This document shows positions 1 through 22,024 of a DNA stretch of 22,024 nucleotides, one piece after another. Numbering within the stretch: position 1 is the stretch's first letter; every line of letters starts with the position of its first letter. The translations under genes and the position numbers were made by a program. This stretch comes from Pseudomonadota bacterium (lineage in GTDB: Bacteria; Desulfobacterota; Desulfobacteria; Desulfobacterales; JBDRRP01): the NCBI GenBank assembly GCA_043825735.1, contig JBDRRP010000145.1:62001-84024 (forward strand). Reading direction: 5' to 3'. The notes under the pieces were generated by a model. The model worked only from the letters and a program-made list of their open reading frames with translations. It was not told the origin of the DNA and did no database searches.

Positions 1-142
1 CCCCTTGGACTGATTTCCAGTGTGTTTCTTTTCTCCGGTCTATCCTGTATATCCCTGTTAACGATCGCTGATTGACCGTTGTTTTCTGATGATGATCACG
101 CCGCGGATCACGCGGATGGAAAGCTGGAAAGTTATTGAGGCC

Positions 143-1135
143 ATGTTTGCCGCCACCGACCTGAATGTCTTGCGCCAGTGGCGCGATGCCGGCACCCCGC
201 CGGTGACGCTCACCCTCCGCACCGCACCCGGCGCCCAAAGTGAGGCACTTCTGGCATATGCTGAGTCGCTGGCCACTCACCTGCCCGCGGTCACGATCAA
301 ACGCCGCTCGGCAGACCGGGAGACCGATCCACCGGCGCTGGTGATCACCGAGCGGCTACACTATCTGGCCACGCCGATGGGCCCGGAGCTGGCGCCCTTT
401 CTCAAAGCACTCCTGGACAGCGGCCGCGGGCTGCCTTCGCTGACATCGGAGACGGCCCGGGGCCTTTCTGCCCTGCCCCTGCCCGCCCGGCTGGAAGTGT
501 TCATCACGCCCCAGTGCCCGTTTTGTCCAGTAACCGTCTCGACCCTGCTGCCACTGGCGCTGGCCCCCGGACGCCAGCGGCTGTCGGTCATCGACGGCAC
601 CCTGTTCCCCGATCTGGCCGCCGCCAGAGCCATCCGCACCGCACCCACCGTCATCCTGGACGGAAGCTTCCGGTGGACCGGAAAACCGGGGATCGACGAG
701 ATTGTGGACGTCATGGTCAACCGCGAGCCCTCCCGCCTGAGCCCGGACAGTCTGAGGGGCATCATTGAAGACGGCATGGCCGAAACGGTGGCCCGGATGA
801 TGATCGATCACGGCGGCATCTTCGACAACCTGCTGCCGCTGCTGGCCCATGACAAATGGCCGGTGCGGCTGGGAGCCATGGTGGTGATGGAGTCCTTCCA
901 GACCCTGCGCCCCGATCTGGCGGCAGAAGCCCCCGAGCGCCTCTGGTCCCTGATGGAAACCGCGGCCAATCCGGTCAAAGGTGATCTTCTCCACGTCATC
1001 GGCGAAACCGGCGACTTGCGCCAGGTGGCGCGCCTGGAGGCTCTGCTGGGCGAAGGCCTGCCGCCGGATCTGGCCGAAGCGGCCGCCGATGCGCTGGAAG
1101 CCATCCGCGGGCGGGTACGGCCGGACGGCAGATGA
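143..1135 (+). CDS. Thioredoxin-family protein (AhpF N-terminal/PDO-like, CPFC motif) with helical HEAT-like C-terminal region
   Basis: ORF 89-1135; start uncertain (89, 116 or 143; GAGG precedes ATG 143). HYLATPMGPELAPFLKALL and LEVFITPQCPFCP resemble the two thioredoxin folds of the AhpF N-terminal domain. The C-terminus (LLAHDKWPVRLGAMVVME; VKGDLLHVIGETG; AEAAADALEAI) resembles HEAT repeats. Confidence 0.75.
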   Translation: MFAATDLNVLRQWRDAGTPPVTLTLRTAPGAQSEALLAYAESLATHLPAVTIKRRSADRETDPPALVITERLHYLATPMGPELAPFLKALLDSGRGLPSLTSETARGLSALPLPARLEVFITPQCPFCPVTVSTLLPLALAPGRQRLSVIDGTLFPDLAAARAIRTAPTVILDGSFRWTGKPGIDEIVDVMVNREPSRLSPDSLRGIIEDGMAETVARMMIDHGGIFDNLLPLLAHDKWPVRLGAMVVMESFQTLRPDLAAEAPERLWSLMETAANPVKGDLLHVIGETGDLRQVARLEALLGEGLPPDLAEAAADALEAIRGRVRPDGR

Positions 1136-1494: not shown

Positions 1495-3030
1495 CTACAT
1501 GGTCCTGGCCAGCGCGAACAGCGGCGCGTGATTGGAGGTGAAAAACGGCGGGGCCCGGCGAAGGATGGCGGCGATGGCCGGATCTTTTCGAAACACCCCG
1601 TCCACAAAGCGGCGCACATTGCGCCGGTGCCAGCCCAGGGGGTGGACGAAATCGCGGTAGCAGCCCAGATCGGCGGCGGAAAAGGGCCGCGTTTCAAGGG
1701 TGACGGCGTCCGGGCTGCCTGCGGGCAGGTTGAAAACCGCCACGTTGAGATAGTCAACGGACGCCGCGTGCGCGCGAACAAATGCCAGCGTGCGCCTGGC
1801 GGCGGTTTCGTCTTCGCTGGGCGTTCCGAAAAGAACGTACACATAGGTGGCGATGCCGGCCCGATGAAGGGTGGTGAGCACCCGCGATGCCGTTTCCAGC
1901 CGGAGCCCCTTGTCCATGGCGTCCAGAACGCCCTGGTCTCCGGATTCCAGTCCCAGTTTGAGCATGACGCAGCCGCTGCGGCGCAGGGCCGCCGCGGTGT
2001 CCGGCTCGGCCAGGCGCTGGTCAAACCGGACGAAACCGTACCAGGGCGCTCCCGGCGGGTCGAGGCAAAGGCGCTCCAGCAGCGCCGGCCGCAGCGCATT
2101 GTCTACCAGGTGAATCAAGGCCGGCCGGTGACGTTGAACCAGCGCGGCAAGCTCGCTGACCGCAATGCCCAGGGGGGCGGGACGCCACAAAGACGCCTCG
2201 GCCCGCTCCGGGCAAAAACGGCATCGCCGCCAGAAGCACCCGTCGGCCGTGCTGTAGGGTACGATGGGGCCCGGACTGAAATACCGCCCGGGGAGAAAGT
2301 CGCTGTAGTCCGGAAGCACTGCGGCCGCCGGATCGACTCCGGCCAGATTCAGCAGGAACGCCTCGCCCGGCCCGGCCACAAGATCGTCCACCAGACCGGT
2401 AAAATCCGGTGCGCCGCTGCCGGCCCGAAGCCAGGACGTCACCAGTCCTCCTCCCAGAATGATGCGCACTGCCGGCAACCGACGGCGCAGGGCGCCGATG
2501 AGATGAAACGCGCTGAGGGCCTGGGACTGAAATCCCACCGAAATGCCGACGATGTCAGGACTGCGGTGGATGCATTCCGCATCGATGAGCGCCTCGAAAT
2601 AACCGGCAAATGGGCTGGCCTCAGGCTGCTCCGCGGCGCGGCACAAATCGGCGGAGTGAAACGGCTGCAGGACCGGGTCTGAATAGTTGCTCAACCCGGC
2701 AAACGCGCCGGTGGCCGATGGGGCCGCTGTCATGAGCCGGTTGAGCGCCGTCACGGCCTGCCTGTAGGCGGCTGCGCCCCGATATCCCGCCCAGGAGCTG
2801 ACCAGCGCCAGGTTCCGCTCGCGGTGCCGCAGGGCACGGCGGGTAAATGTATCGTCGGGCACCTCAGAACGGGCGAGCAGCCACCGTTGCCCGTCCAGAT
2901 TGGCGTCCACCACACGGCAGGAAACACCGCTGCCCCGGAGCACGCCGGCCAGCCGGGCAACCCCCGGCGGCGGCTCGCAGGCCTTGACCGCCGGCGGGCT
3001 GATCAGCAACACGTGGGGGAGATGTTTCAT
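1495..3030 (-). CDS. B12-binding domain radical SAM protein
   Basis: CxxxCxxC motif (CFWRRCRFC). N-terminal LLISPP..PPPGVARLAG, PDIVGIS and IILGGG segments are typical of cobalamin-binding radical SAM proteins; GLESGD and LFGTPSE are TIM-barrel motifs. Start placed at MKHLPH (3030); the track start at 3057 lies in repeats. Confidence 0.88.
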   Translation of the reverse strand: MKHLPHVLLISPPAVKACEPPPGVARLAGVLRGSGVSCRVVDANLDGQRWLLARSEVPDDTFTRRALRHRERNLALVSSWAGYRGAAAYRQAVTALNRLMTAAPSATGAFAGLSNYSDPVLQPFHSADLCRAAEQPEASPFAGYFEALIDAECIHRSPDIVGISVGFQSQALSAFHLIGALRRRLPAVRIILGGGLVTSWLRAGSGAPDFTGLVDDLVAGPGEAFLLNLAGVDPAAAVLPDYSDFLPGRYFSPGPIVPYSTADGCFWRRCRFCPERAEASLWRPAPLGIAVSELAALVQRHRPALIHLVDNALRPALLERLCLDPPGAPWYGFVRFDQRLAEPDTAAALRRSGCVMLKLGLESGDQGVLDAMDKGLRLETASRVLTTLHRAGIATYVYVLFGTPSEDETAARRTLAFVRAHAASVDYLNVAVFNLPAGSPDAVTLETRPFSAADLGCYRDFVHPLGWHRRNVRRFVDGVFRKDPAIAAILRRAPPFFTSNHAPLFALARTM

Positions 3031-3054
3031 TTGGAATTTGTGATTTCCTGTTTC

Positions 3055-3079
3055 CAATCAACAATCGACAATCAACAAT
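3055..3079 (+). repeat. 7-bp tandem repeat CAATC(A/G)A, about 3.5 units
   Basis: CAATCAA CAATCGA CAATCAA CAAT read directly. Confidence 0.8.
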
Positions 3080-6812: not shown

Positions 6813-8696
6813 ATGAACTTGAACAACTACACGGCAGAATCCATCGAGGTGCTCAACGGACTGGAACCGGTCCGTCGCCGCCCCGGCATGTACACCGATA
6901 CCACTCGGCCCAATCACCTGGCCCAGGAAGTTATCGACAACAGCGTGGACGAAGCCATTTCCGGCTACGCCAACCGCATCGATGTCACCCTTTTCGAGGA
7001 CGACTCCCTCCTGGTGGTGGATAATGGCCGCGGGATGCCTGTAGATATCCACCCCGAGGAGGGCATCACCGGGGTGGAACTGATCATGACCCGGCTCCAT
7101 GCCGGCGCCAAGTTCTCGGACAAGAATTACCGCTTCTCCGGCGGGCTTCACGGCGTTGGGGTTTCGGTGGTCAACGCCCTGTCCAGACGACTGGAAGTGG
7201 AGATCCGGCGCGACGGGAAAAAACACCGCATCACCTTCGCCGGCGGCGACATCGACACCCCGCTGGAAGAAATCGGCACCGTGGGGGTTCGCAATACCGG
7301 CACCAGCATCCGCTTCTGGCCGGATCCCAAATATTTTGACATGGAACGGTTCTCTCTGCGGCGCCTGAAACACAACCTCAGAGCCAAGGCTGTCCTGTGT
7401 CCGGGACTCACCATCCGTTTCACCGATGCGCGCACCGGTGAAAGCCAGGAGTGGCTCTATGCGGACGGCCTTGCCGAATACCTGACCGGCGAGTTGGCCG
7501 ATCATCCCCTGCTCCCGGATCCGCCCTTTACCGGCAACGTGGAGGAACCCGGCGAATCGGTGGCCTGGGCGGTCACCTGGCTGCCCGATTCGGGCGAAGT
7601 CGTGGGCGAGAGCTACGTCAACCTGATCCCCACCCCCCAGGGCGGCACCCACGTCAACGGGTTTCGCACCGGACTGCTGCTCTCGCTGCGGGAATTTTGC
7701 GATTTTCGCAAACTGCTGCCCCGCGGCGTGAAACTGACCCCTGACGATCTGTGGGACCGGTGCACCTACGTGCTATCCGTCAAGATGCAGGACCCCCAGT
7801 TCGCCGGCCAGACCAAGGAGCGCCTGGGCAACCGTCAGACCGCCGGCATCGTATCCGGGGTCATCAAGGATGCCTTCAGTCTCTGGCTCAACCAGCACAC
7901 CGAAGTCGGCGAGAAGCTGGCCGAAATAGCCATTCAAAACGCCCAGAAACGGCTGCGCTCAGGAAAGGTGGTGGCCCGGAAGAAAGTCACGTCAGGCCCT
8001 GCGCTGCCCGGAAAACTGGCCGACTGCGTGCTCCAGGACCCCATGCAGACCGAGCTTTTTCTCGTGGAAGGCGACAGTGCCGGCGGCTCGGCCAAACAGG
8101 CCCGGGACCGGCAGTTCCAGGCGGTGATGCCGCTGCGGGGAAAAATCCTCAACACCTGGGAGGTGGACTCGGCCGAGGTGCTGGCCTCAAAGGAAATCCA
8201 CGACATCTCCGTGGCCATCGGCGTGGACCCCGGTGTGGCCAACCTGGAGGGTCTTCGCTACGGCAAGGTCTGCATCCTGGCCGACGCCGACTCCGACGGG
8301 CTGCACATCGCCACGTTGCTGTGCGCCTTGTTTCTCCAGCACTTTGCCCCACTGGTGGCGGCCGGTCACGTCTGCGTGGCCATGCCGCCGCTCTTTCGCA
8401 TCGATGTGGGAAAAGAAACCCACTACGCGCTGGATGAACGCGAAAAGCAGGATCTTTTGGAGCGCATCGCCGCCAAGAACCCCAGAAGCGCCGTCAACGT
8501 GATCCGCTTCAAAGGCCTGGGCGAGATGAACCCGGTGCAGCTCAGGGAAACCACCATGGCTCCGGACACCCGGCGCCTGGTGCGCCTGACCATGGTCGAT
8601 CCCGAGCGCCCCATGGCCGTCATGGACATGCTGTTGGCCAAAAAGCGCGCGGGCGACCGCCGCACCTGGCTGGAAACCTACGGCAGCATGATCTGA
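6813..8696 (+). CDS. parE: DNA topoisomerase IV subunit B
   Basis: GLEPVRRRPGMYTDTTRPNHLAQEVIDNSVDEA, GGLHGVGVSVVNALS, EGDSAGG, PLRGKILNTWE, DADSDG, RFKGLGEM; 627 aa with no GyrB insert. Confidence 0.97.
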   Translation: MNLNNYTAESIEVLNGLEPVRRRPGMYTDTTRPNHLAQEVIDNSVDEAISGYANRIDVTLFEDDSLLVVDNGRGMPVDIHPEEGITGVELIMTRLHAGAKFSDKNYRFSGGLHGVGVSVVNALSRRLEVEIRRDGKKHRITFAGGDIDTPLEEIGTVGVRNTGTSIRFWPDPKYFDMERFSLRRLKHNLRAKAVLCPGLTIRFTDARTGESQEWLYADGLAEYLTGELADHPLLPDPPFTGNVEEPGESVAWAVTWLPDSGEVVGESYVNLIPTPQGGTHVNGFRTGLLLSLREFCDFRKLLPRGVKLTPDDLWDRCTYVLSVKMQDPQFAGQTKERLGNRQTAGIVSGVIKDAFSLWLNQHTEVGEKLAEIAIQNAQKRLRSGKVVARKKVTSGPALPGKLADCVLQDPMQTELFLVEGDSAGGSAKQARDRQFQAVMPLRGKILNTWEVDSAEVLASKEIHDISVAIGVDPGVANLEGLRYGKVCILADADSDGLHIATLLCALFLQHFAPLVAAGHVCVAMPPLFRIDVGKETHYALDEREKQDLLERIAAKNPRSAVNVIRFKGLGEMNPVQLRETTMAPDTRRLVRLTMVDPERPMAVMDMLLAKKRAGDRRTWLETYGSMI

Positions 8697-9063: not shown

Positions 9064-11337
9064 ATGAGCACCACCGACACCACGATCTTAGAAGGCATTG
9101 AAGAGCTCCCCCTGGAGCAGTTTACCGAGAAGGCCTATCTCGAATACGCCACCTACGTCATTCTGGACCGGGCCCTGCCGTTCATCGGCGACGGCCTCAA
9201 GCCGGTACAGCGCCGGATCGTCTATGCCATGAGCGAGCTGGGGCTGCGGGCCACGAGCAAGCATAAAAAAAGCGCCCGCACCGTGGGTGACGTCCTGGGC
9301 AAGTTCCACCCCCACGGCGACAGCGCGTGCTACGAGGCCATGGTGCTCATGGCCCAGCCCTTCTCCTACCGATACCCGCTCATCGACGGCCAGGGCAACT
9401 GGGGCTCGCCCGACGACCCCAAGAGCTTTGCCGCCATGCGCTACACCGAATCGCGCCTGTCGCGCTACGCCGCCACGCTGCTCAGCGAACTGGATCAGGG
9501 CACCGTCACGTGGGAGCCCAATTTCGACGGCACTCTGAAAGAGCCCGCCAGCCTGCCGGCGCGGCTTCCCAACGTGCTTTTGAACGGCACTACCGGCATC
9601 GCCGTGGGCATGGCCACCGACATCCCGCCCCACAATCTTCGGGAAGTGGCGGCCGCCTGCATCCATCTTCTGGACAATCCGGCCGCCGACACCACCGCAC
9701 TGTGCGAGATCGTCAAGGGACCGGATTACCCCACCCAGGCCGAAGTGATCACGCCAAGAGAAGAACTCGAGGAGATGTACCGCACGGGCCACGGCAGCCT
9801 GCGTATGCGCGCGGCCTACTACCGGGAGAACGGGGACATCGTGGTCACGGCGCTGCCCCACCAGGTGTCGGGCAACCGGGTGCTGGAGCAGATCGCCCAG
9901 CAGATGCAGGCCAAAAAGCTGCCCATGGTGGTGGACTTGAGAGACGAGTCCGACCACGAGGACCCCATCCGCATCGTCATCGTGCCCCGCTCCAATCGCG
10001 TGGACATGGACGGGCTCATGAGTCATCTATTCGCCACCACCGATCTGGAAAAATCCTACCGGGTGAACCTCAACGTCATCGGCGTCAACGGCAAGCCCCA
10101 GGTGAAAGGGCTTGCCGCGATCCTGGGCGAATGGCTGGAGTTCAGAAAGCAGACGGTCCGCAATCGGCTCGAACACCGCCTGACCAAGGTCATTGACCGG
10201 CTCCACATCCTGGACGGCCTGCTCATCGCGTTTTTGAACATCGACGAGGTCATCGCCATCATCCGCCGCGAAGACGTGCCAAAACCGGTCCTCATGGCCC
10301 GGTTCGGGCTGAGCGACATCCAGGCCGAGGCCATCCTGGAATTGAAACTGCGGTTTCTCGCCAAGCTGGAGGAAGTAAAGATCCGGTCAGAGCAGGCGGC
10401 GCTGGCCGAAGAGCGCGAGCGCCTGGAAAAAATTCTCAACTCTCCGGCGCGTCTGAAGACCCTCATCCGAAAAGAGCTCGAAACCGATGCCGAGGCCTAC
10501 GGCGACGATCGCCGCTCACCCATCAAGGCCCGGCCCGAGGCCCAGGCCATGACCGAGCTCGACCTCATGCCCGTGGAGCCCGTAACGGTAATCCTATCCC
10601 AAAAAGGGTGGATCCGGTCGGCCAAAGGCCACGACATCGCCCCGGAGAGCCTGGCCTATAAATCCGGCGACGGCTTTTTCGCCGCCGCCCACGGCCGCAG
10701 CAACCAGTTTGCGATCTTTATCGACACCACCGGCCGCAGCTATTCGCTGGCGGCCCACTCGCTGCCCTCGGCCCGCAGCCAGGGCGAGCCGCTCAGCGGG
10801 CGCATTCAGATGCCCGGCGGGGCCACGGCCATGGCCGTTCTGTGCGGCCCGCCCGAGCAGCAGGTGCTCCTGGCCAGCGATGCCGGCTACGGATTCGTGG
10901 TGGCCCTTTCCGATCTGCACTCCAAAAACCGCAGCGGCAAGGCGATGCTCACGCTTCCCCCGGGAGCCCTGCCCCTGCCGCCGGTAGCCGTCGGCGATCT
11001 GGGGACCGATCTTCTGGTGTCCATCACCACCGAAGGACGCATGCTGGTATTTCCCCTGTCCGAGTTGCCCGAGCTGGCCAAGGGCAAGGGCAACAAGATC
11101 ATCAACATCCCCTCGGTGAAGGCCCGGCGCCGGGAGGAGCTGGTCACCCACCTCTTCATCCTGCCGGCCGACCACCAGCTCGTGGTCACCGCCGGCAAGC
11201 GCTTCATCAACCTGCGCCCCGGAAACCTCGCCGACTTTGCCGGCAAACGCGGCCAGCGCGGCAAAAAGCTCCCCCGCGGCTTTCAGAACGTCACCGGCCT
11301 GGAGGCCCAGCCGCTCACCCAGCGAAGCCTGATTTAG
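9064..11337 (+). CDS. parC: DNA topoisomerase IV subunit A
   Basis: [44 protein letters not shown], catalytic AAMRYTE; 757 aa, no GyrA box, ParC-like C-terminal end. Confidence 0.97.
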
Positions 11338-11995: not shown

Positions 11996-12444
11996 ATGAA
12001 ACAGTTAAACCGATCCGTATCTGAACCCATGCCATCCGCAGTTGCACGTCAATCAAGAAGGCGGCCCGCTTTTTTCATGCATAGATGCACATCGGTAGGA
12101 ATACTTTTGTTGCTGCTGGCGGTCGGCTTTCCGTCGCTGGCATTCGGGGCCAGCGGAAATATTACCCAGTCAATCGGCACCGATGCGAATGGTAAAATCA
12201 CGAGCATCAACATTCAGGCGGTGCTGCTTTCCGATGCGACAAGCTCTTACGAATCAGGCGCTTACGGCGGATGCGCTTGTTACACCTATGCAAAAGCGCG
12301 CTATTTGCTGGACGGGGGCTATACCGGCCGTGAGTACCAGTGTGAATGGGGGTGGATGAATAATGCATATGGACAATATGATGATCTTGGCCAAACAAGA
12401 GGCATTTATTCGGTCAATCGATTCCAGTCAAATCAATATTGGAA
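11996..12444 (+). pseudogene. 5' fragment of the IS-interrupted Rhs gene (signal peptide plus start of the N-terminal domain)
   Basis: GAGGG RBS before ATG 11996 (alternative ATG 12077). Hydrophobic h-region GILLLLLAVGFPSLAFG-A. The frame runs into the IS at YWN and resumes in frame after the right TSD. Confidence 0.85.
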
Positions 12445-13517
12445 TCTGGTTATGCAGTTGTCTCAAGTAACCTTTGGTTGTGACCGTATCTGTCACAGCT
12501 ATCGACTATGCTGGCCTGCACATACGAAAGGAGGCCAGCATGAGCCCGATCCAAGTTTTCGAAGATTTCCCGAAAACCCAAAAAGAGTTCGACAAGCGAT
12601 TTAATGACGAAGAAGCCTGTTATGATTATCTTTTCAAGCTTCGGTGGCCTACTGGCTATTGGTGTCCGAAATGCGGGAACTACGCTTACTGGAAGAGCCG
12701 ACGGGGTCTTTTTATCTGCTGCCGATGCGAACACCATCAGTCGGTGACGGCCGGAACCATTTTGCACCGGACCCAAAAACCACTGACCTTGTGGTTCAAG
12801 GCGATGTGGTGGTTTACCACGCGAAAATCGGGAATCAACGCCGTTACCCTTCAAAGCTTGCTTGGTTTTGGCAGTTACCACACTGCTTGGAGCTGGTTGC
12901 AAAAACTTCGCTGCTGTACGATCCGCCAAGGCAGAGAAAAGCTTTCTGGCCAGGTTGAGGCAGATGAATTTTACCTTGGTGGCCAACATACCGGCAAAAG
13001 GGGCCGCGGGTCCGAAAACAAGTGCGCTGTAGCGATTGCTGTGGAAAGAAAAGGGAAAAAGTTGGGCCGGTTGCGGCTTAAAGTCATCGAAAACTGCAGC
13101 GGCGAAAAGTTGCTTCCGTTCGTCAAAGAAAATGTTCAAGTTAGCAGTGCTGTGACCACTGACGGATGGCCAGGCTATAGCGGCCTTGAGAAAGAAAAAT
13201 ACGTGCACAAACAGGTGACTCGGTGCAAAACCGATAATAAGGACAGCGTTCTGCCAGGAGTGCATCTTGTCATCTCTCTCTTAAAGCGGTTGATGCTGGG
13301 AACACACCAAGGCCGATTTGAAGAAAAATACCTACAGCGCTATTTGGACGAGTACGTTTTTCGCTTCAACCGTCGGCAAACGAAGTCAGTAGGCAAACGG
13401 TTCTGGCGCATCGCCCAGCAAATAGCAGTTTCCTCGCCGGTGGCTATACGCCAGATACTCAGCGGTTGCCCTCCGATGCTGGCAAATTAGTCAACTTGAG
13501 GCAACTGCATAACCAGG
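12445..13517 (+). mobile_element. IS1595-family insertion sequence (probably ISSod11-like subgroup), 1073 bp
   Basis: TIRs TCTGGTTATGCAGTTGTCTCAAGT (12445-12468) and ACTTGAGGCAACTGCATAACCAGG (13494-13517) match at 22/24. 8-bp TSD TATTGGAA at 12437-12444 and 13518-13525. Confidence 0.93.
12540..13490 (+). CDS. IS1595-family DDE transposase (316 aa)
   Basis: AAGGAGG RBS before ATG 12540. Zn-ribbon (CPKC..CCRC), HTH region, VEADEFYLGG, TTDG, H..K, YLDEYVFRFNRR. Confidence 0.95.
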   Translation: MSPIQVFEDFPKTQKEFDKRFNDEEACYDYLFKLRWPTGYWCPKCGNYAYWKSRRGLFICCRCEHHQSVTAGTILHRTQKPLTLWFKAMWWFTTRKSGINAVTLQSLLGFGSYHTAWSWLQKLRCCTIRQGREKLSGQVEADEFYLGGQHTGKRGRGSENKCAVAIAVERKGKKLGRLRLKVIENCSGEKLLPFVKENVQVSSAVTTDGWPGYSGLEKEKYVHKQVTRCKTDNKDSVLPGVHLVISLLKRLMLGTHQGRFEEKYLQRYLDEYVFRFNRRQTKSVGKRFWRIAQQIAVSSPVAIRQILSGCPPMLAN

Positions 13518-13664
13518 TATTGGAATTATTATCCCGGCCCGGGTTATCACGTCGCCACTTTTCAGATAGTCGATAGCTACCAGGATGGCCCAAACGGTAG
13601 AACCAGCGGCGTCATTGCCGAAATCAACATTCCCTTCTACGTAGACGCCAGCGGAAACCAGTTC

Positions 13665-16600
13665 ATGCGCCTCAATGAGAGCGCCAATCAGGGATGCGGC
13701 GAATGCAGCGGCACCATCAGCCCGCTGCTCAAGGGCAACCCGACCAACAGTGCAACGGGCAACAAATACGAGGCCGCCACGGACGTGTCGCTGCCAAGTC
13801 TCGGGTATCCCTTGTCCTTCAGGCGTTCCTACAACAGCCGATCCACTGTGGACGGCCCGCTGGGTTTCGGGTGGACCCATTCATACAATACCGCGCTGCA
13901 GGTCGTCGACGGAGACCACGTGGCCGTTCTTCGCGGCGACGGCGGAATGACCCCCTACGCCCGCGATGCCACCAATGTATACAGGGCCGCCTATGGTCCG
14001 AGCGCCGGCATTACAAAAACCTTCGACGCCACGGTGTTTACCGGGTGGGAATTGAATCGCTCCGACGGTATCCGAAATGTTTTCGACACCAGCGGCAAAC
14101 TGGTGAGCATTGTATCCAAGGGGCTGACCACGTCGCTGACCTATGATGCGAACGGCCGGCTGAGCACTGTCACCGATACCGGGTCGGGTCGAACGTTGTC
14201 GCTTGCCTATACCGCCGAGGGACGCATCGACGCCATCACCGGGCCGGTGACCGGGGCCGTCCCAAGCGGCAAGTATGTCGACTACGATTACGATGCGAAC
14301 GGCAACCTCACCGATGTGGTCTATGCCGACGGCAGCGGTTTTGTTTACGCCTATGCCGACCCCGGCGACGTTCACAACCTGACCCAAAAATCGGACCGCT
14401 CCGGACACACCCTGACCACCTGGAATTACGACGCATCGGACCGGGTCATTGCCAGCTACAGCCGGGATTTGGGTGCCATTTCCTTTGACTATGTCAACGC
14501 CAGGCAGACCGTCATCACGGACGGCTACGGCAAGCAGGTCACCCAATCCATCATCATAAAAGACGGCAAGGCGCTGGCATCCACTGTCACGGGCGATGCG
14601 GCCTGCACCTCGGGTTGCGGTCAAACAGGACCGGTGCGCTATGCCTATGACGACCACCACCGGTTCACCGAAAAGGAATATGCCGACGGCCGGATCATCA
14701 GATACGGCAATTTCGACAGTCGCGGCAATGCGCAGACGGTGATCGAGGCTTTCGGAACGCCGGAGGAAAGAACCCTTCTTTACACCTACCATCCCGTTTT
14801 GAACGCTCCGCGCAGTGTCACCCGTGGGTCGGTCATGGGCAGCGGGGATGCCGCAATCATTTACGATTATGACGACGACGGCAATGACACGCCCAACGAG
14901 GCGCCGACCCAATTGGTGCACCGGATGATCCGCCGGGGGAACACCCGCGACCTTTCCGGAACGGTTGCCGCCTCCGAGCAGGTAACGGTGCTTTCCTACA
15001 ATGCAAAAGGGCAGCCGGTGCTTGTGGACGGCCCGCGGGATGGGGTGGCGGATACCGTCGAATTCACCTATGACCCGGCTACCGGGGATCTTTTGAGCGT
15101 CGTATCGGCCGGTGCGTTCACGACGACCTATGCGGACTACGACGCCGCCGGCAGGCCCGGCACCATCACCGATATGAACGGTGACGTCCACGCCTACACC
15201 TATGACGGCCGCGGCCGTGTGCTGACGGTGACCCGCACGGCCGACGGCAGCAGGACGTCTTTTGTCTACAACGCCGATGGCGAAATCGAAACGGTCACAC
15301 TGCCGGGCGGCGCGACGACGCAGTTTACTTACGACAGCGCCTACGGCCGGCTGGTCGAGATGGCCGATGCCGCCGGAAACCGGCTGGCATACGATTACGA
15401 CGCCAATGGCAACCGGTCGGATGTGGGCGCCTATGATGCCGAGGACTCCCGGTCCTACTGGATGCGATACGTTTACGACGGTCCCGGAAACCCCGGGAAA
15501 CTGGCGAGACAAATCAACCCGGACGACACCTTCACCGCGTATGCCTACAACGCCGTGGGCAAGGTCGCCACCGTCACTGACCCCAATGGCAAGGAAACGC
15601 TCGTCGACTACGACATTTTGGGAAGAACCTCCCATGTGACCCAGCCCGGAAGCGTCGTTACCGCTTACAGTTATGATGCCCACGACAACCTCACCTCGGT
15701 GACCGATGCCGAAGGCCAGGTTACCAGCTATGTCTTCGACGACTTCGGCCGCGTGGTGGAAGAAGTCTCCGCCGATGCCGGCACCACCCGCTACGCTTTT
15801 GATGCCGCCGGCAACATGACCGCAAAGACCGATGCGCTCGGCATCACCACCACTTACACCTACGATGCCCTGAGCCGGCTTACCGGCATCCATTTCCCGG
15901 ATGCTTCCCAGGATGTCATTTACACCTACGACGAAGGGGTAAACGGCGTCGGGCACCTCACCGGCATGAGTGATCCTTCGGGAAGCGTTGTCTATCGTTA
16001 CGACGCGCAGGGGCGCCTGAGCGCAGAGGAAAGAACCATCGACGGGCTGACCTATACCACGGCCTACGGTTTTGATGCCGCCGGCATCCTGACGTCCATG
16101 ACCTATCCGGACGGCCGCACTGTGAACTACATCCCCGATGCCGCAGGGCGCATCACCGAGGTCACCACTACGGTGGACGGGGTAACGACCACCCTGGCCT
16201 CGAACATCGGCTACCTGCCTTTCGGCCCCTTGAAGCAGATGACGCTGGGCAGCGGCACCGTCGTGGGCAAAACCTTCGACGAGGCCTACCGCCTCACCCA
16301 TCTGACCGCCGGCAGCCACATGGACCGCGCTTACGGCATGGACGCTATAGGCAACATCACCGCCATCACCGACGCCCTCGATCCCACCCGTAGCCAGAGC
16401 TTCGGTTACGACGATCTTTACCGACTCACCAATGCCACGGGCATCTACGGCGCCATCGGCTATACTTACGACAAGGTGGGAGGCCGTCTCACCCGCACCG
16501 AAAACGGGGAGACCGACACCTACGCCTATGTCACCGGCACCCACCGGCTGGACAGCGTCAGCGGCGTGAGCCCCATGCAGTTCGCCTACGACGCCAACGG

Positions 16601-19600
16601 CAGCACCACGGCAATGGGCGATCGCAGTCTCATCTACAACCAGAACAAGCGCCTCATCCAGGTCGTGGAGAGCGCCGCAAGCCTCGGCGAGTATGTCTAT
16701 AACGGCAACGGGCAGCGGGTGAAGAAAACCGCCAATGGCGAGACCACGGTCTTTCACTGGGACCAGCTTGGCAACGTCATCGGCGAGTCCGACACGGCCG
16801 GTAATTTCAGCGCGGCCTATGTCTATCTGGGAAGCGCCCGCGTGGCGGCCATCCGCGCGTCCGGCGCTACGCCCACCGACATCGCGGTTCAGGTGGCCAC
16901 CGACGAAGGGCGCACCCTTTCAGGTGTGAAAGTCTATGCCTTCACCGAGGCGGGTTCCTATACCGGCAAAAACGCCGTCACCGGTCCCGATGGAACCGCT
17001 ATTTTCACTGCGGCAGATTTTTCTGACGGCCGGTACAAATTCCGCGCCGATTACCTGGGAGACCAGTTCTGGTCGGCGGCGGCAGCCATCCCGGGCACCT
17101 ACAACATCCCGATAGACATCCCCGAAGAGGCCACCGCGGTTCTGGTCACACAGGCCGGCGTGCCGGTATCGGGCGTGAAGGTCTATCTTTTCAGCGATTC
17201 CGGTTCCTATCTGGGCCAGTACCAGGTCACCGACGCCGACGGCCGGGTGACGTTCGTTCTGCCCGAAGGCCAAGGGTATCAATTCCGGGCCGATCTTTTG
17301 GGGGGCCGGTATTTCTCGGGAGTGGTGACCATCGCAGCCGGCCAGAGCGTTCCCGTCTCAGTGGACACCGGCGGCGGCATGCTGTCCTTCACGCTTCAAA
17401 AAGCGGCAGGGCTGCCCATGGCCGGGGTGAAGACCTATCTTTTCTCCGAAGCAGGAAGTTATCTCGGGATCTCGATCACCACCGATGCCGACGGCAAAGC
17501 GGGTTACCCGGTTTCTTCGGGAAGCTATAAAATCCGTGCCGACTACCTGGGCTATCAGTACTGGTCGGATGCGGTGGTCGTGGCCAGCGATACGGCCGCA
17601 GCCCTCACCCTGCCCCATGAGGACGTCACCGTCACCGTGGCCGGCGACAATGCCGGCGACATCGAAGCGCGAAGCGGGGTAAAGGTATATCTTTTCACAG
17701 CGGCCGGCAGCTATCAGGGCATCAATGCCACAACCGACGAAAACGGTCTGACCGTCTTCAGCCTGCCGGCGTCCGAATACAAAGTGCGTGCCGATTATCT
17801 GGGCCGGCAGTTCTGGTCGGAGACGTTCACCCAGGCAGATGCCGCCGTCACCATCCCCGAAGGCGATGTGGACATCATGGTGACCCGGCTGAACGCGCCT
17901 CTGGACGGTGTGCCGGTCTATGTCTTCAGCGCCGCCGGCAGTTATCTGGGCCTAAGTGGCGCCAGCGACGCAGGGTCTCCAATATCGTTCCGTCTGCCCG
18001 CAGGCAATTACAACTTTAGGGCCGACTATCTGGGCAGCCGGTATTTCAGCGGCAACACCACCCTGATCGCAGATCAGGTGAACCCGGTCACCGTCTCCAC
18101 CGGCGGCGGCAATTTTACGCTCACCGTCCAGGAGACAGACGGCGTGCCCATGGCCGGGGTGAAGTGTTACCTGTTTTCGGCGGCCGGCGCCTATCTCGGC
18201 CATCAGGCCGCCACCAGCGCAGCCGGTGAGGCGCCCTTCGATCTGGCGGACGGCGGCTACAAGATCCGGGTCGACACCCTGGGCTACCAGTACTGGTCGC
18301 CGGTGTTCTCGGTGCCGGCAGAGTCCGCACTCGTTTATGACATCCCGCATCAGGACGTGGCCATCACCGTCCAGACCGATGACGGCTCAGCCACGACGCC
18401 GGCCGCCGGTGTAAAAACCTATCTTTTCACCGAGGCCGGCAGCTACCAGAATGTTTCCATTACAACAGACGAAAGCGGACTGGCGATCTACCATCTGCCG
18501 GCAAACGCCTACAAGATCCGCGCTGATTACGTGTCGCAGCAGTATTGGTCCGAGGCTACGATCCAGGAAGACAAGACAGTCACCATTGCCCAGGGCATCG
18601 CCCGCGTGCAGGTGAGCCAGGGGGCCAGCCCTATCGAAAACGTCAAAGTTTACGCATTCACCACCACCGGTTCTTATCTTGGTTTAAATTGCACCACGGA
18701 CGCCTCAGGCGAGGCCGTGTTCACCCTGCCCGAGGGCAGCTACAAGTTCCGCGCCGATCACCAGGGCAGCCAGTTCTGGGCCACGGCCACGGTAACGGCA
18801 GGCGTTGACACTCCGATCGTGCTTTCCACCGGCGGCGGGATATTCGCCCTAACCGTCCAGACCGATGCCGGAGCGCCTCTCACCAACGTGCCGGTTTACG
18901 TGTTTTCAACCAGCGGCAGCTATCTTGGCATCAACGCCGCCACCGACGAAAACGGCATCGTCCGGTTCGATCTTGCCGATGGCGGCTACATGTTCCTCGC
19001 CGACTATCTGGGCTACCAGCACTGGAGCAACATCTGCACCGTTCCGGGCATGCTCTCCGATGTATTGAGTCTGCCGCACACCGATGTGACGGTCACCGTA
19101 AACGAGGTTTACGGAACCGACAGCGATCCGCTCTCCGGCGTAAAGGTCTATCTGTTCACGGCATCCGGCGCCTACCAGAGCGTAAATGCCACCACCGATG
19201 CCGACGGGCAGGTATCGTTCACGCTTCCCAACCAGAATTACAAAGTTCGAGCGGACTATCTGGGCCGGCAGTTCTGGTCCGAGGTATTCAACGGGGCAAG
19301 TGAAGTGGCCGTTGACATTGCCCATGGCTATGCCGACATCCACGTCACCGATCTCGGCGCTGATGTGCAAGGCGCTTCCGTTTATCTCTTTACCGAGACG
19401 GGTTCCTACCTGAGCCGCATGCAGCCAACAGATGCGGCTGGCACCGTATCATTTATCGTACCGGCCGGCGCCTACAAGTTCAGGGTGGATCACGGCGGCA
19501 GTCAGTACTGGTCCGATGTCGTGAATGTGCTTGCAGACGAAGTCACACCGATCGAGATGGCCCTGGACCTTCTGGCCCTGGACGACACACTCAACCCGCA

Positions 19601-20399
19601 TCCCCACAGGTTCGACGGCACGCCGCCCAAATACCGGCCCGAACCGGTCTACCTGGCATCCCTGCTGAACATCACCGGCCTTCTGGCAAACACCGTGGTT
19701 GCCGCAACCCCCAACGATGCCGTATACTATTACATCAACGATCACCTGGGCACGCCGCAGAAAATGATCGATGCCCAAGGCAATGTGGTATGGGAAGCCG
19801 ATATCAAGCCGTTTGGGCAGGCGGCGATAAATGCAGACACAGTACCAAATCATTTTAGGTTTGCCGGCCAATACTTCGATAGTGAATCCTCACTTCATTA
19901 CAATTACCAACGCTACTTTGATCCAAGCGCAGGAAGATACCTCACACCGGACCCGATTGGATTTGGTGGAGGGGTTAATCTTTTTGTGTATGTCAAAAAT
20001 AATCCGCTGAATTTGATAGATTCGTATGGTTTGTGGTCTATCTGGAGTGGATCAAGCGGGGTCGCAGCCTGGGGTCCATGGGGTGGAAATGCAGGAAGTG
20101 GGTTCGCATATGATTCTGACAGGGGATTTGGCGGTTATACAACGACAGGGGCTACTCAAGGCGCTGGAGGTTCTATAGGCTACGAAGCGGGTTTCTATAC
20201 AGGCTCCATAAGTGGAGAAACAGAAGTTTTTACATTAGGTCTTGGTTTCGGTTCGGTAGGTTTCGTAACAGACTATAGAGGGAATTGGGGAATTGTGCTC
20301 GGGGTGTCAAAGGGCATCCCGGCAGAAGCTACGATTTCACAAAACAATACAATTTTTTATCCGATTTCTGATAGCGAGGAAAGCACTTGCCAGCAATAA
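13665..20399 (+). CDS. Rhs/YD-repeat polymorphic toxin-like protein (3' part of the IS-split gene; frame continues upstream to 13518)
   Basis: DUF6531-like GNPTNSATGNK..FRRSYNS..GPLGFGWTHSY; many YDxxGRL/YDxxGNL repeats; Rhs core YYYINDHLGTP..RFAGQYFD..HYNYQRYFDPSAGRYLTPDPIG..NNPLNLIDSYGL; 121-aa C-terminal extension. Confidence 0.95.
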   Translation: MRLNESANQGCGECSGTISPLLKGNPTNSATGNKYEAATDVSLPSLGYPLSFRRSYNSRSTVDGPLGFGWTHSYNTALQVVDGDHVAVLRGDGGMTPYARDATNVYRAAYGPSAGITKTFDATVFTGWELNRSDGIRNVFDTSGKLVSIVSKGLTTSLTYDANGRLSTVTDTGSGRTLSLAYTAEGRIDAITGPVTGAVPSGKYVDYDYDANGNLTDVVYADGSGFVYAYADPGDVHNLTQKSDRSGHTLTTWNYDASDRVIASYSRDLGAISFDYVNARQTVITDGYGKQVTQSIIIKDGKALASTVTGDAACTSGCGQTGPVRYAYDDHHRFTEKEYADGRIIRYGNFDSRGNAQTVIEAFGTPEERTLLYTYHPVLNAPRSVTRGSVMGSGDAAIIYDYDDDGNDTPNEAPTQLVHRMIRRGNTRDLSGTVAASEQVTVLSYNAKGQPVLVDGPRDGVADTVEFTYDPATGDLLSVVSAGAFTTTYADYDAAGRPGTITDMNGDVHAYTYDGRGRVLTVTRTADGSRTSFVYNADGEIETVTLPGGATTQFTYDSAYGRLVEMADAAGNRLAYDYDANGNRSDVGAYDAEDSRSYWMRYVYDGPGNPGKLARQINPDDTFTAYAYNAVGKVATVTDPNGKETLVDYDILGRTSHVTQPGSVVTAYSYDAHDNLTSVTDAEGQVTSYVFDDFGRVVEEVSADAGTTRYAFDAAGNMTAKTDALGITTTYTYDALSRLTGIHFPDASQDVIYTYDEGVNGVGHLTGMSDPSGSVVYRYDAQGRLSAEERTIDGLTYTTAYGFDAAGILTSMTYPDGRTVNYIPDAAGRITEVTTTVDGVTTTLASNIGYLPFGPLKQMTLGSGTVVGKTFDEAYRLTHLTAGSHMDRAYGMDAIGNITAITDALDPTRSQSFGYDDLYRLTNATGIYGAIGYTYDKVGGRLTRTENGETDTYAYVTGTHRLDSVSGVSPMQFAYDANGSTTAMGDRSLIYNQNKRLIQVVESAASLGEYVYNGNGQRVKKTANGETTVFHWDQLGNVIGESDTAGNFSAAYVYLGSARVAAIRASGATPTDIAVQVATDEGRTLSGVKVYAFTEAGSYTGKNAVTGPDGTAIFTAADFSDGRYKFRADYLGDQFWSAAAAIPGTYNIPIDIPEEATAVLVTQAGVPVSGVKVYLFSDSGSYLGQYQVTDADGRVTFVLPEGQGYQFRADLLGGRYFSGVVTIAAGQSVPVSVDTGGGMLSFTLQKAAGLPMAGVKTYLFSEAGSYLGISITTDADGKAGYPVSSGSYKIRADYLGYQYWSDAVVVASDTAAALTLPHEDVTVTVAGDNAGDIEARSGVKVYLFTAAGSYQGINATTDENGLTVFSLPASEYKVRADYLGRQFWSETFTQADAAVTIPEGDVDIMVTRLNAPLDGVPVYVFSAAGSYLGLSGASDAGSPISFRLPAGNYNFRADYLGSRYFSGNTTLIADQVNPVTVSTGGGNFTLTVQETDGVPMAGVKCYLFSAAGAYLGHQAATSAAGEAPFDLADGGYKIRVDTLGYQYWSPVFSVPAESALVYDIPHQDVAITVQTDDGSATTPAAGVKTYLFTEAGSYQNVSITTDESGLAIYHLPANAYKIRADYVSQQYWSEATIQEDKTVTIAQGIARVQVSQGASPIENVKVYAFTTTGSYLGLNCTTDASGEAVFTLPEGSYKFRADHQGSQFWATATVTAGVDTPIVLSTGGGIFALTVQTDAGAPLTNVPVYVFSTSGSYLGINAATDENGIVRFDLADGGYMFLADYLGYQHWSNICTVPGMLSDVLSLPHTDVTVTVNEVYGTDSDPLSGVKVYLFTASGAYQSVNATTDADGQVSFTLPNQNYKVRADYLGRQFWSEVFNGASEVAVDIAHGYADIHVTDLGADVQGASVYLFTETGSYLSRMQPTDAAGTVSFIVPAGAYKFRVDHGGSQYWSDVVNVLADEVTPIEMALDLLALDDTLNPHPHRFDGTPPKYRPEPVYLASLLNITGLLANTVVAATPNDAVYYYINDHLGTPQKMIDAQGNVVWEADIKPFGQAAINADTVPNHFRFAGQYFDSESSLHYNYQRYFDPSAGRYLTPDPIGFGGGVNLFVYVKNNPLNLIDSYGLWSIWSGSSGVAAWGPWGGNAGSGFAYDSDRGFGGYTTTGATQGAGGSIGYEAGFYTGSISGETEVFTLGLGFGSVGFVTDYRGNWGIVLGVSKGIPAEATISQNNTIFYPISDSEESTCQQ
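16875..19568 (+). repeat. 11 tandem ~82-aa beta-rich domains (SpaA/Cna-B/carboxypeptidase-regulatory-like) inside the Rhs gene
   Basis: Consensus GVKVYLF(T/S)xxGSYLG..TDxxG..FxLPxGxYKxRADYLGxQ(Y/F)WS counted 11 times in the translation. The fold assignment is inferred from the motif pattern. Confidence 0.9.
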
Positions 20400-20437
20400 A
20401 ATCGCCAATAAATGATCTTCCAGAGGCCAAAGCGAGT

Positions 20438-20758
20438 ATGGAGACGACGAAAAGCAGCGACCTTAAGGAAAAGGTTAGGAAGATACTATTTAGAAGAAAT
20501 ATTGCCGTGCTATCTATTTTTCTTTTTGTACCACTTGTTGGGTTAACAGATTACTTTTTTAGATCAAAAACGGTCAGCCTGTCTTTTGCCGGCCTGTTTT
20601 TATTTGTAATAGGTTTGCAGATATTTATCTTGAATTTCAGTAAGTGCCCTCGTTGTCATAAATTCTTTTTCTGGTCGAAGCTATGGGCAAACGTGTTTTC
20701 GAGCAAATGTATGAATTGTGGTCTTGGCGTAAAGGATGAAGAGGCTACAAATGGATAG
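20438..20758 (+). CDS. Small membrane protein (2 TM plus CxxC..CxxC), candidate Rhs immunity protein
   Basis: Immediately downstream of the Rhs stop, same strand, low GC. Hydrophobic IAVLSIFLFVPLVGL and LSFAGLFLFVIGLQIFIL, followed by CPRC..CMNC. Start uncertain (20387 or 20438). Confidence 0.65.
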   Translation: METTKSSDLKEKVRKILFRRNIAVLSIFLFVPLVGLTDYFFRSKTVSLSFAGLFLFVIGLQIFILNFSKCPRCHKFFFWSKLWANVFSSKCMNCGLGVKDEEATNG

Positions 20759-20795
20759 TTGAGTACACCCTTATATGGATTGTTCACATATAACG

Positions 20796-20828
20796 GCGGT
20801 TAAGGGAATTCTTCCTTAACCGCTTTTT
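20796..20828 (+). terminator. Rho-independent terminator closing the Rhs locus
   Basis: Stem GCGGTTAAGG / CCTTAACCGC followed by TTTTT. Confidence 0.8.
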
Positions 20829-20890
20829 GCTTTTATGGAGGCAGGTTCTCCGCAGGAAGGTAAGGCCCGGACACGCAGACGGTACGCCGC

Positions 20891-21376
20891 CTATTTCTGT
20901 TTTTGTCTTTCCTTGTCAAGTTCTATGTTGAAGGCGATGTTGAGTCTCATGATATCGACAATGTTTTTGAAAAAGGAAAACACGTTTATCACGGATAGGA
21001 TAAACAGTCCTCCGGAAATCGCGGCGGCGCTTTTGCTCTGCGTGATCTGCGTGATGCCAAAAGCGATGGTTGTCACCAGAAAAACCGCTATGGCTGTGAG
21101 AAATGCCCGCAGGTAATTGTTAAACGCTTTTTTCTGGTAAAGCCATTTTGCAAAATCGCTGTCGCTGCGTGAATAGAAAGTCCAGAAGAATGCAATGCTC
21201 CCTGCCAGCATGATGGCCGTGAATTTTGTTGCCCAGCTATCGGCCGTGCTTATGAAGAAGCTTGCGATCTGATCGAAATCCCAGAGCCAAAAGGAAAGGC
21301 TGTATAAAAGCCCTGCCAGTATAACTTCGGATAGATAGGCCCACAGGATCACGAGTCTGTTTTTTGCCAAGGCCAT
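20891..21376 (-). CDS. Hypothetical membrane protein (about 4 TM helices)
   Basis: 161-aa ORF with four hydrophobic stretches. Its ATG overlaps the upstream TGA (TGATG), implying translational coupling. Confidence 0.8.
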   Translation of the reverse strand: MALAKNRLVILWAYLSEVILAGLLYSLSFWLWDFDQIASFFISTADSWATKFTAIMLAGSIAFFWTFYSRSDSDFAKWLYQKKAFNNYLRAFLTAIAVFLVTTIAFGITQITQSKSAAAISGGLFILSVINVFSFFKNIVDIMRLNIAFNIELDKERQKQK

Positions 21377-21918
21377 CAGCCCTCTTTGGGATGCAGCCTG
21401 TCAATCTCCGCCGCAATGGCACTGATGACTAGCTGTGTCTCTTTAGCTTTTGCATTTGCGGCGACGCCCCGGACATAGTCTTTAAGGGCATCCAGTTTGC
21501 CTCTTGCCGCATCCTCACTGGATCTGACTTTGGTGAACTTGTTCTCTTTTATCCCCTCAAAAAGAACTTCTCCGCTTTTATAGCCTTCTTCAGCCAATGC
21601 AATCGAGGCGAATGGCCGGGCCTGTTCATCTTTTGACAATCCGCCCGGGTTCTTCATGTCTTGCAGGTACTCTCGGATGCCGCCTTTTTCTAGATCCTCG
21701 TAGAGGGATTTTGTGTATCTTGAAAGCTCGGGGTTGGGCAATCTCAAATAGACTTTTAGACGGGTGAGCCTATCAAAGGATCTAAAAAGTTTTACGATCT
21801 CGTGTTGTTCCGGGACTTCCTCCAGCAAAAGCGATGAGGCCATTTTCATCTTGATGGCGGCGTTTAACAGAATTTTTGTGGGTCGTTTGGGGGACGGACC
21901 AAGCCAAGCTATTGACAT
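21376..21918 (-). CDS. Hypothetical soluble protein, possibly DUF4747-like and 5'-truncated
   Basis: Protein-like composition (RLKVYLRLPNPELS..GGLS..AEEGY..GEV..EG) and coupled to the next gene. No RBS before 21918; the frame is closed by TAG near 21991. True start unknown. Confidence 0.6.
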   Translation of the reverse strand: MSIAWLGPSPKRPTKILLNAAIKMKMASSLLLEEVPEQHEIVKLFRSFDRLTRLKVYLRLPNPELSRYTKSLYEDLEKGGIREYLQDMKNPGGLSKDEQARPFASIALAEEGYKSGEVLFEGIKENKFTKVRSSEDAARGKLDALKDYVRGVAANAKAKETQLVISAIAAEIDRLHPKEG

Positions 21919-22024
21919 GAGGAGTAAAATTTGAAAAACTGGCCCTAAAATCGGCCTTAGGATGCTAATTTGGCCCCCAAAAATACCGTTCTAAGCAAAA
22001 CCCCCTTCCCATGGCCCGTGCGAG

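Follow-up and report, generated by a model that had tools for sequence, protein, structure and literature searches.

The window analysed here, a stretch of 22,024 nucleotides (nt) of assembly GCA_043825735.1 (contig JBDRRP010000145.1, positions 62,001-84,024 of the forward strand), carries the gene of an Rhs/YD-repeat toxin, P0001, in which 11 tandem beta-sandwich domains and a linker of 51 amino acids (aa) are inserted between the last strand of the YD shell and the Rhs core. The reading we prefer, at a probability of roughly 0.6, is that this array forms an external arm that is looped out of a closed cocoon and is used for surface attachment, and most of the doubt concerns the attachment. 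The source assembly consists of 160 contigs. Protein families were assigned with Pfam and NCBIfam, and DNA repeats were located with Tandem Repeats Finder. P0001 is translated from the plus strand as a single 2244-aa open reading frame (ORF, 13665-20399), and the frame is open from stop to stop over 13500-20399 (2299 codons). Its parts are:

13665-16853, plus strand: plug region with DUF6531 (aa 24-95), then the YD-repeat shell up to aa 1063, from Pfam/NCBIfam and solved cocoons
16854-19565, plus strand: 7-residue lead-in and 11 tandem domains of the CnaB/transthyretin-like beta-sandwich fold (aa 1071-1967), from alignment, PF13620 and fold matches
19566-19718, plus strand: conserved 51-aa linker from the array back to the core (aa 1968-2018), from the homolog alignment
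19719-20033, plus strand: PF03527 'RHS protein' segment and Rhs-associated core, the plug/autoprotease region (aa 2019-2123), from PF03527 and TIGR03696
20034-20399, plus strand: polymorphic, glycine-rich C-terminal tip of 121 aa, without a known family

Insertion site and predicted cocoon closure

DUF6531 (PF20148, E 1.7e-20) covers aa 24-95 of P0001, and the YD repeats were recognised by PF05593 (E 2.9e-79, 14 stretches) and TIGR01643 (E 3.6e-59). The last strand of the shell, AAYVYLGSARVAAI, stands directly before the insert, which comprises aa 1064-2018 (955 aa, nt 16854-19718) and is flanked by aa 1050-1063 and by aa 2019 onward. Behind the insert we found PF03527 at aa 2020-2055 (E 2.5e-13, 50.1 bits at a cut-off of 27.9) and TIGR03696 at aa 2048-2123 (E 6.7e-24, 84.2 bits at a cut-off of 32.5). 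Since R2083, D2096, D2119 and G2122, which are invariant across our 45-row family alignment, are all present, the core with its conserved autoprotease Asp residues looks intact; its last motif reads DSYGL, as compared with DPxGL in the family consensus. A preliminary description of this DNA had reported 11 tandem domains and a 51-aa linker inside the Rhs core region, followed by an intact core. Both statements were confirmed, and only the end given for the insert (19721) was one codon too long.

The shell of P0001 is matched by the solved Rhs cocoons 8h8a, 7q97, 8cp6 and 7pq5, and its core aligns to that of 28 solved chains. An assignment as E. coli-type RHS element core protein (the NF041261 equivalog) was rejected on a score of 203.3 bits, as compared with the cut-off of 2000.

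The preliminary description also stated that the two segments flanking the insert are consecutive in typical Rhs proteins, and two independent sequence comparisons agree that they are adjacent in canonical Rhs. The first uses P0121, a 2163-aa paralog on contig C50 of the same genome, in which the counterparts of P0001 aa 624-1035 and 2019-2142 map 105 nt apart; about 35 residues are present where P0001 has 982, and the last YD strand leads via a two-residue turn into the YYYxNDHLGTPQK segment without any insert. The second uses RhsP (8h8a), where P0001 aa 964-1048 align to chain residues 944-1029 and aa 2013-2122 to residues 1043-1151. Here, 13 RhsP residues stand for 964 in P0001, 15 of which belong to the last YD strand, and at the insertion point itself P0121 and RhsP carry only about 8-13 residues. 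Tse15 (8uy4) has 54 residues in the same gap, and the site therefore accepts loops even in type VI secretion system (T6SS) effectors.

For docking, the shell (aa 240-1063) and the linker plus core (aa 1968-2130) were modelled as two chains, each with the 45-row family alignment. The interface score ipSAE was 0.85 in all three runs, as compared with 0.00 for the best of three controls; of 157 solved complexes, 116 reach the mark that we applied to this score, as do 2 of 215 mismatched pairs. The pLDDT (predicted local distance difference test) of the partner was at least 67, and at least 61% of the contacts agreed between runs. The confident interface takes in residues 1057-1063, 2014-2016 and 2018-2027, which border the insert. 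In these models the two parts have the appearance of an ordinary shell with its plug, and closure of P0001 itself is a prediction. Because the flanks are adjacent in canonical Rhs and the core re-docks with both boundaries in the interface, the array should loop out of the cocoon, and because shell and core are predicted to close, it should project as an external arm.

The preliminary description had left two options, namely that the array loops out of the cocoon or that it acts as a spacer. The docking interface (1057-1063/2014-2027) favours the former. As a spacer, the array would keep plug and tip away from the shell, with a cocoon that is open or closed in trans. A fully extended rigid chain of 11 domains would indeed be hard to close with a 51-aa linker, and the flanks and the linker were of low confidence when modelled without the shell. 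However, canonical docking is predicted for the shell and the core behind the insert (0.85 versus 0.00, both boundaries in the interface), and the flanking strand motifs and the core residues are conserved across the family. Moreover, the array lies N-terminal to the shell in another Rhs protein (P0083) and at the terminus of non-Rhs proteins, positions in which it could not separate a shell from a plug. We therefore regard a spacer as very improbable.

Array domains and the protein family

The 11 repeats (aa 1071-1967) measure 77-84 aa apiece, with pairwise identities of 30-61%. The identity matrix and best-match mapping gave a super-repeat with a period of three domains, (A-B-C)x3 + A-B. At each of the three B-to-C boundaries there is an invariant Gly-Gly(-Gly) (G1237/G1238, G1480-G1482, G1723/G1724). 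Tandem Repeats Finder detected no DNA-level tandem repeat in the array region, and the array repeats are therefore old and diverged. The linker has the family consensus LDLLAL..TN.P.PVRFDG.PP...PE...LASL.

Inside the insert, the Pfam and NCBIfam profiles gave overlapping weak matches to beta-sandwich families (bMG3, Big_1, CarbopepD_reg_2, transthyretin), and CarboxypepD_reg (PF13620) matched nine of the 11 repeats at E<=0.01, each alone below the curated cut-off. When aa 1040-2130 were modelled with AlphaFold2, the domain blocks reached a pLDDT of about 80-94 at a predicted template modelling score (pTM) of 0.36. A four-domain piece, A-B-C-A (aa 1318-1646), gave a pLDDT of 96.3 and a pTM of 0.81 with long strands crossing the domain boundaries, and this model indicates a rigid unit. 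Its best Foldseek matches were CnaB-type stalks (B. anthracis TIE, Cna B1B2 and pilins; top hits 6fwv and 1d2p) with a TM score on the query (TMq) of at most 0.29. For single domains, the three best matches in VIA had Z-scores of 12.1 (3e8v), 10.9 (CnaB2, 8bdw) and 10.4 (transthyretin-like, TTR, domain of carboxypeptidase D, 5aq0), with root-mean-square deviations (rmsd) of 1.8-2.4 over 78-85 residues, and the TTR domain of fly teneurin (8fia_A 860-940) matched a single repeat with Z 9.1. Among the two-domain pieces, the C-A pair could be placed on pilin GBS52 (Z 10.3, rmsd 4.6 A, 166 residues); the A-B and B-C pairs were unmatched, and at the multi-domain level Foldseek and VIA found for both models only a generic likeness to tandem immunoglobulin-like (Ig) or CnaB domains. 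A search of the repeat profile against the sequences of the PDB yielded nothing significant (best E 0.017, 6fwv). The profile matches and the models together assign to the array domains the CnaB/transthyretin-like fold that is known from the stalks of pilins and adhesins.

A search with aa 1040-2060 found 358 proteins at E<=0.001, and the best 120 of these 358 were listed and examined. The repeat profile finds 9-19 copies in all 120 listed homologs, far more than chance would produce. Fifty-three of them are Rhs-type proteins with YD motifs ahead of the array and the same junctions as P0001, and they share the order Y-I/V-Y-L-G-x-x-R-L-A-A, array, linker of about 50 aa, YYY-I/L-NDHLGTPQ. Most of the 53 stem from Desulfobacterales metagenome genomes. 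Homologs with an insert at the same position, for which the preliminary description had suggested a search, thus exist, and the variable repeat number that it had envisaged was not found: 51 of these 53 listed proteins have 11 repeats, one has 10, and one, which is truncated, has 9. In contigs from one genome per species, 17 of 76 loci run from the shell flank into the core. They come nearly all from Desulfobacterales-type metagenome-assembled genomes (MAGs), with labels including Desulfobacterales, Desulfobacteraceae, Olavius algarvensis Delta 4 endosymbiont, Desulfocapsaceae and Syntrophobacterales, and two oddly labelled MAGs are also among them. Intact members include a protein of locus L019 with 70% identity and one of L047 with 58%. 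All family members that we saw are from uncultured genomes, and their database name is only 'RHS repeat-associated core domain-containing protein'.

Conservation was quantified as mean identity to P0001 over 44 homologs, and for the tip over the 15 homologs that align there. The shell reached 45.9%, its last 300 residues 55.0%, the array 54.4%, the linker 53.5% and the core 58.0% (n=44 in each case), as compared with 16.3% for the tip (n=15). The array therefore behaves as a structural part and the tip as a polymorphic toxin.

The remaining 67 of the 120 do not belong to Rhs; they are giant beta-sandwich proteins in which 11-19 domains of the same type were counted (13 domains in 36 proteins, 14 in 19, 15 in three, 16 in four, 12 in two, 11 in two and 19 in one). 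Their array runs to the C-terminus in 60 of the 67 and starts near the N-terminus in six. One such protein, the secreted 1921-aa P0122, is encoded in the same genome as P0001 (contig C12, L011:6758-12523, minus strand), and the C-terminal half of this protein is an 11-domain array that has 49% identity to the Rhs insert and is for the most part collinear with it. One genome thus uses the array module twice. In P0083 (2545 aa), an Rhs protein, 12 domains of this type lie N-terminal to DUF6531 and the YD shell. Judging from these arrangements in the sequences, the array is a module in its own right, which a protein can carry at its N- or C-terminal end or looped out, and this autonomy fits an arm and not a shell-plug spacer.

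At two loci, orphan cassettes were found downstream of the main gene (L047:15262-16512 and L013:10243-11562). They begin inside repeat 10 and hold repeat 11, the linker, the core and a different tip, and the homology arm for tip exchange seems to be supplied by the end of the array. A search with the linker only, among 1.84 billion representatives, returned 45 proteins, mostly short, orphan-like ones of 115-700 aa; it listed no full-length member (>2000 aa), and its yield is hence not a measure of family size. PF03527 follows directly after the linker in all 30 of these 45 matches that were scanned, and the tips of the scanned proteins include Tlde1 and peptidase M23, both of which are directed at peptidoglycan.

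These data also bear on the possibility that the architecture is an artefact, either an assembly chimera of Rhs and adhesin genes, a concern raised in the preliminary description, or a functionless, decaying pseudogene. The assembly comprises 160 contigs, and this gene copy is interrupted by an insertion element. Logan contigs were available from one DNA run that holds the stretch (X1), a groundwater metagenome that is possibly the source sample and not independent. Junction 1 lies within a 3289-nt X1 contig (13978-17266) that shows no differences to the window. Of the listed Logan pieces, a single one reaches across junction 2, a record of 212 nt that has 6 differences and extends 26 nt beyond the junction. 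On the other side, both junctions recur in 53 listed proteins out of the 120, which stem from a large number of separate assemblies and sources, and in the 17 genome loci; the frame is open over 2299 codons, the array is conserved like the shell, and the orphan cassettes hold repeat 11, linker and core as one unit. An artefact is thus extremely improbable for P0001, and for the family as a whole it is effectively refuted.

Proposed attachment and delivery, and known systems

The sequences show the array and its linker as an inserted module, placed in the hairpin that leads from the last YD strand to the PF03527/Rhs core, and shell and core are predicted to form a closed cocoon all the same. 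The array, of about 100 kDa, is predicted to project from the C-terminal pole of this cocoon, anchored at both ends. In the mechanism that we propose, the arm would serve in surface display or adhesion: after Sec export, it would hold the loaded cocoon on the envelope of the producer or on a neighbouring cell, by analogy the job that N-terminal adhesion arrays do in WapA and teneurin-like proteins, and such tethering would permit T6SS-independent, contact-dependent delivery of the autoproteolytically released tip. As for export, a crude hydropathy rule assigned a signal-peptide-like N-terminus to 28 of 52 homologs, and most of the others look N-terminally truncated. Neither the window nor six related loci contain T6SS, PAAR or VgrG genes, and no such domain was found in P0001. 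TssC is encoded elsewhere in the genome (contig C120). The assignment of P0001 as a T6SS-delivered Rhs effector was rejected, since it lacks a PAAR or VgrG-binding domain and T6SS linkage and its N-terminus is signal-peptide-like.

Adhesion or tethering is suggested by fold likeness and by the places in which the module occurs. Several observations weigh against an attachment arm on a closed cocoon. The array is conserved at the level of the shell and is not hypervariable, as a receptor binder in an arms race might be. The fixed number of domains could reflect inheritance from a single insertion event and not a geometric constraint. Linker residues 1968-2013 lie outside the confident docking interface, and the docking result may come from the memory of the model for the often-solved Rhs fold. 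When the insert was modelled without the shell, linker and flanks had a pLDDT below 50, and the model, at a pTM of 0.36, does not fix the geometry of the whole array. No conserved neighbour or partner gene was found at the six loci, where the neighbours vary. Finally, the copy in the window is disrupted by an insertion element.

The conservation and the missing partner also enter into a different explanation, in which the array is a docking or assembly module that either fixes the cocoon on a machine, as the propeller of TcB does on TcA, or builds, by contacts between arrays, a lattice, a fibre or an S-layer-like coat in common with the non-Rhs array proteins; cells would not be bound in this case. 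It would be in line with a module that is common to unrelated surface proteins, P0122 included, with a shell-like and not diversifying array and with the predicted rigidity of the unit. The best Foldseek match of the full model was the neck of the oligomeric grappling-hook protein GhpA, at a TM score of only 0.05. However, this match reflects generic tandem-Ig likeness (TMq 0.05-0.06, rmsd >90 A), and none of the six loci offers a conserved partner as neighbour. We consider this explanation unlikely, if worth keeping in mind.

A more specific version of the arm, which we hold to be rather unlikely, would make the family a Sec-dependent, T6SS-independent contact inhibition system of diderm sulfate reducers in which the array is a folded-back bundle and binding triggers release. 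Instead of a straight stalk, the chain would form rigid stretches of 2+3+3+3 domains that meet in three turns at the Gly-Gly(-Gly) B-to-C boundaries, and the number 11 would be fixed by topology because four antiparallel segments return the chain to the shell; the 13- and 14-domain arrays of the non-Rhs proteins would need no such return. The arm would display the cocoon and, on binding to a neighbour, would also pass a force or a conformational signal to the adjacent plug and thereby release the toxin.

Returning to the attachment arm in its general form, we compared P0001 with known systems. Canonical Rhs proteins (RhsP 8h8a, RhsA 7q97, Tse5 8cp6, Tre23 7pq5, Tse15 8uy4) likewise have a DUF6531-type N-terminal region, a YD shell, a PF03527 and TIGR03696 core with conserved Asp, a polymorphic tip, a small downstream gene and orphan tip cassettes. 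In contrast to P0001 with its 955 residues at the insertion site, they have from 13 (RhsP) to 54 (Tse15), and they are T6SS cargo with PAAR, VgrG or clade domains, whereas P0001 belongs to a Sec-type signal and has no T6SS gene nearby.

Gram-positive WapA is a Sec-exported, surface-displayed YD-shell toxin with a polymorphic tip and an N-terminal adhesion array. In the available part of the sources, bacterial teneurin-like proteins (TLPs) are described as Sec-exported surface YD-shell toxins with polymorphic tips and adhesion or beta-sandwich arrays, in Thermodesulfobacteriota too (PMC13018210, PMC6425310), and often carry carboxypeptidase-regulatory-like repeats upstream of the scaffold (PMC6425310). 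The adhesion arrays of TLPs and WapA are thus N-terminal to the scaffold, whereas that of P0001 is inserted before the core. Identity of P0001 as a TLP was rejected on the basis of Pfam, which finds DUF6531 and no TIP, NHL, FN-plug or propeller domain. The CnaB stalks (Cna/SdrD B repeats, B. anthracis TIE, Gram-positive pilins) have the same single-domain fold and head-to-tail tandem use as predicted for the array, which differs from them by its unmatched four-domain arrangement (TMq <=0.29), its period-3 super-repeat, its diderm host and its place within a toxin cocoon. The term hybrid adhesin-toxin, used in the preliminary description, is at most in keeping with the CnaB-like fold; adhesion itself would be a further step.

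The statement in the same description that accessory domains normally lie N-terminal to the shell was incomplete, since mosquito SGS1 and TcB carry domains inserted in the shell. As described in the available part of PMC9935623, four of the five surface domains of SGS1 are encoded by segments inserted in the YD repeats, two of the inserted domains are Ig-like beta-sandwiches and proposed receptor domains, and TcB carries a propeller on its YD shell. To the extent covered there, SGS1 and TcB resemble P0001 in that accessory domains are encoded within the YD sequence and displayed on the exterior of the shell. They differ from P0001 in carrying single domains (propeller, carbohydrate-binding module, lectin, wedge) at other shell positions, whereas P0001 has one 11-domain array, which roughly equals the shell in length, at the final hairpin ahead of the core. 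An assignment as the BC component of a Tc toxin was rejected, since Pfam found no propeller family and neither the window nor the six loci contain a TcA-like neighbour; TcdB2-TccC3 chains match only the core region of P0001.

Inserted domains on YD shells are thus already known, and for the layout seen here no description was found, in agreement with the preliminary description, which had named no characterised example. Our literature search, outside which most subscription journals and supplements lay, gave no account of a tandem array before the Rhs core or of this Desulfobacterales family, and no paper on RHS repeats in Desulfobacterales. To our knowledge, Rhs cocoons have been studied almost only as T6SS cargo or as scaffolds of Tc toxins and teneurins. 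The present family is conserved and of fixed geometry, and it would place a shell-sized stalk directly beside the plug that gates the toxin, a natural system for studying how the opening of the cocoon is linked to a binding element on its outside. In the final hairpin ahead of the core, an insertion of about 100 kDa is tolerated, which may be useful for engineering Rhs cages. In addition, the data flag a widespread, unnamed surface module of 11-19 domains in Desulfobacterales.

Interrupted 5' end and neighbouring genes

The called start of P0001 is preceded by an insertion element (IS), which the preliminary description had missed and which splits the gene from a 5' part with a putative signal peptide:

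11996-12445, plus strand: 150-codon 5' part of the Rhs gene, cut off by the IS, whose product starts with a hydrophobic stretch resembling a Sec signal (ORF list, translation)
12446-13517, plus strand: IS1595-family insertion element with transposase ORF 12474-13490 (PF12762, PF12760, inverted and direct repeats)
13527-13664, plus strand: in-frame Rhs continuation from behind the IS to the first ATG in the called ORF (open stop-to-stop frame)
20438-20758, plus strand: candidate immunity gene, a small protein with two hydrophobic stretches found by eye (position only)

The transposase matches PF12762 (DDE_Tnp_IS1595, E 2.3e-33) and the zinc ribbon PF12760. Terminal inverted repeats of 23 nt (12446-12468 and 13494-13516) are 96% complementary, and the 9-bp direct repeat TATTGGAAT flanks the element at 12437-12445 and 13518-13526, so that transposase, zinc ribbon, inverted repeats and target-site duplication, the features of the IS1595 family, are all present. 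End fragments of the same IS were found on contigs C6 and C33 of this genome. The IS region is covered by one X1 Logan contig (11900-13927) without differences. An IS-free joint was not seen among the X1 contigs, and contigs drop rare variants.

At the left end of the IS, the 150-codon piece stops exactly between two codons, and its frame matches that from 13527 onward. It is assigned to the Rhs gene because, and only because, the frame is continuous across the IS: the 150-aa product has no Pfam family and no match among the 120 listed homologs or 40 related genomes. The frame is open from 13500, and therefore the ATG called at 13665 lies inside the gene, with the signal peptide split from the toxin. 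With the IS separating the signal-peptide part, export of the product of this gene copy is improbable. No RNA run was listed as holding the stretch, and the two metatranscriptome runs from the same study had no contigs on it, which says nothing on expression.

The 121-aa tip has no Pfam match even at E 5, and in the Atlas it fell into unnamed clusters only, with a recognition below the Atlas's own reliability mark. The GC content, about 0.55-0.63 before the tip, falls to 0.43 there and amounts to 0.43-0.48 over 20001-22024, to the contig end. Such a drop is usual for Rhs tips. The candidate immunity ORF (20438-20758), so called from its position just after or overlapping the toxin stop, has no Pfam family above threshold; small unrelated ORFs are found at the same position in related loci. 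Farther downstream, Pfam assigned no family to two ORFs on the minus strand (20891-21376 and 21376-21918). The genes upstream are parE (6813-8696) and parC (9064-11337).

The paralog P0121 (L010:2750-9241) has an N-terminal region of about 690 aa and another glycine-rich tip, and an 825-aa ORF lies directly upstream of it (L010:272-2749). At the far end of the window, a 9-bp tandem repeat, CGATCCAAA, occupies 1375-1470 (10.7 copies, 97% matches) between an ORF at 89-1135 (plus strand) and a radical SAM/B12-binding ORF at 1495-3057 (minus strand), and a 14-bp repeat of 1.9 copies is located at 1129-1155.

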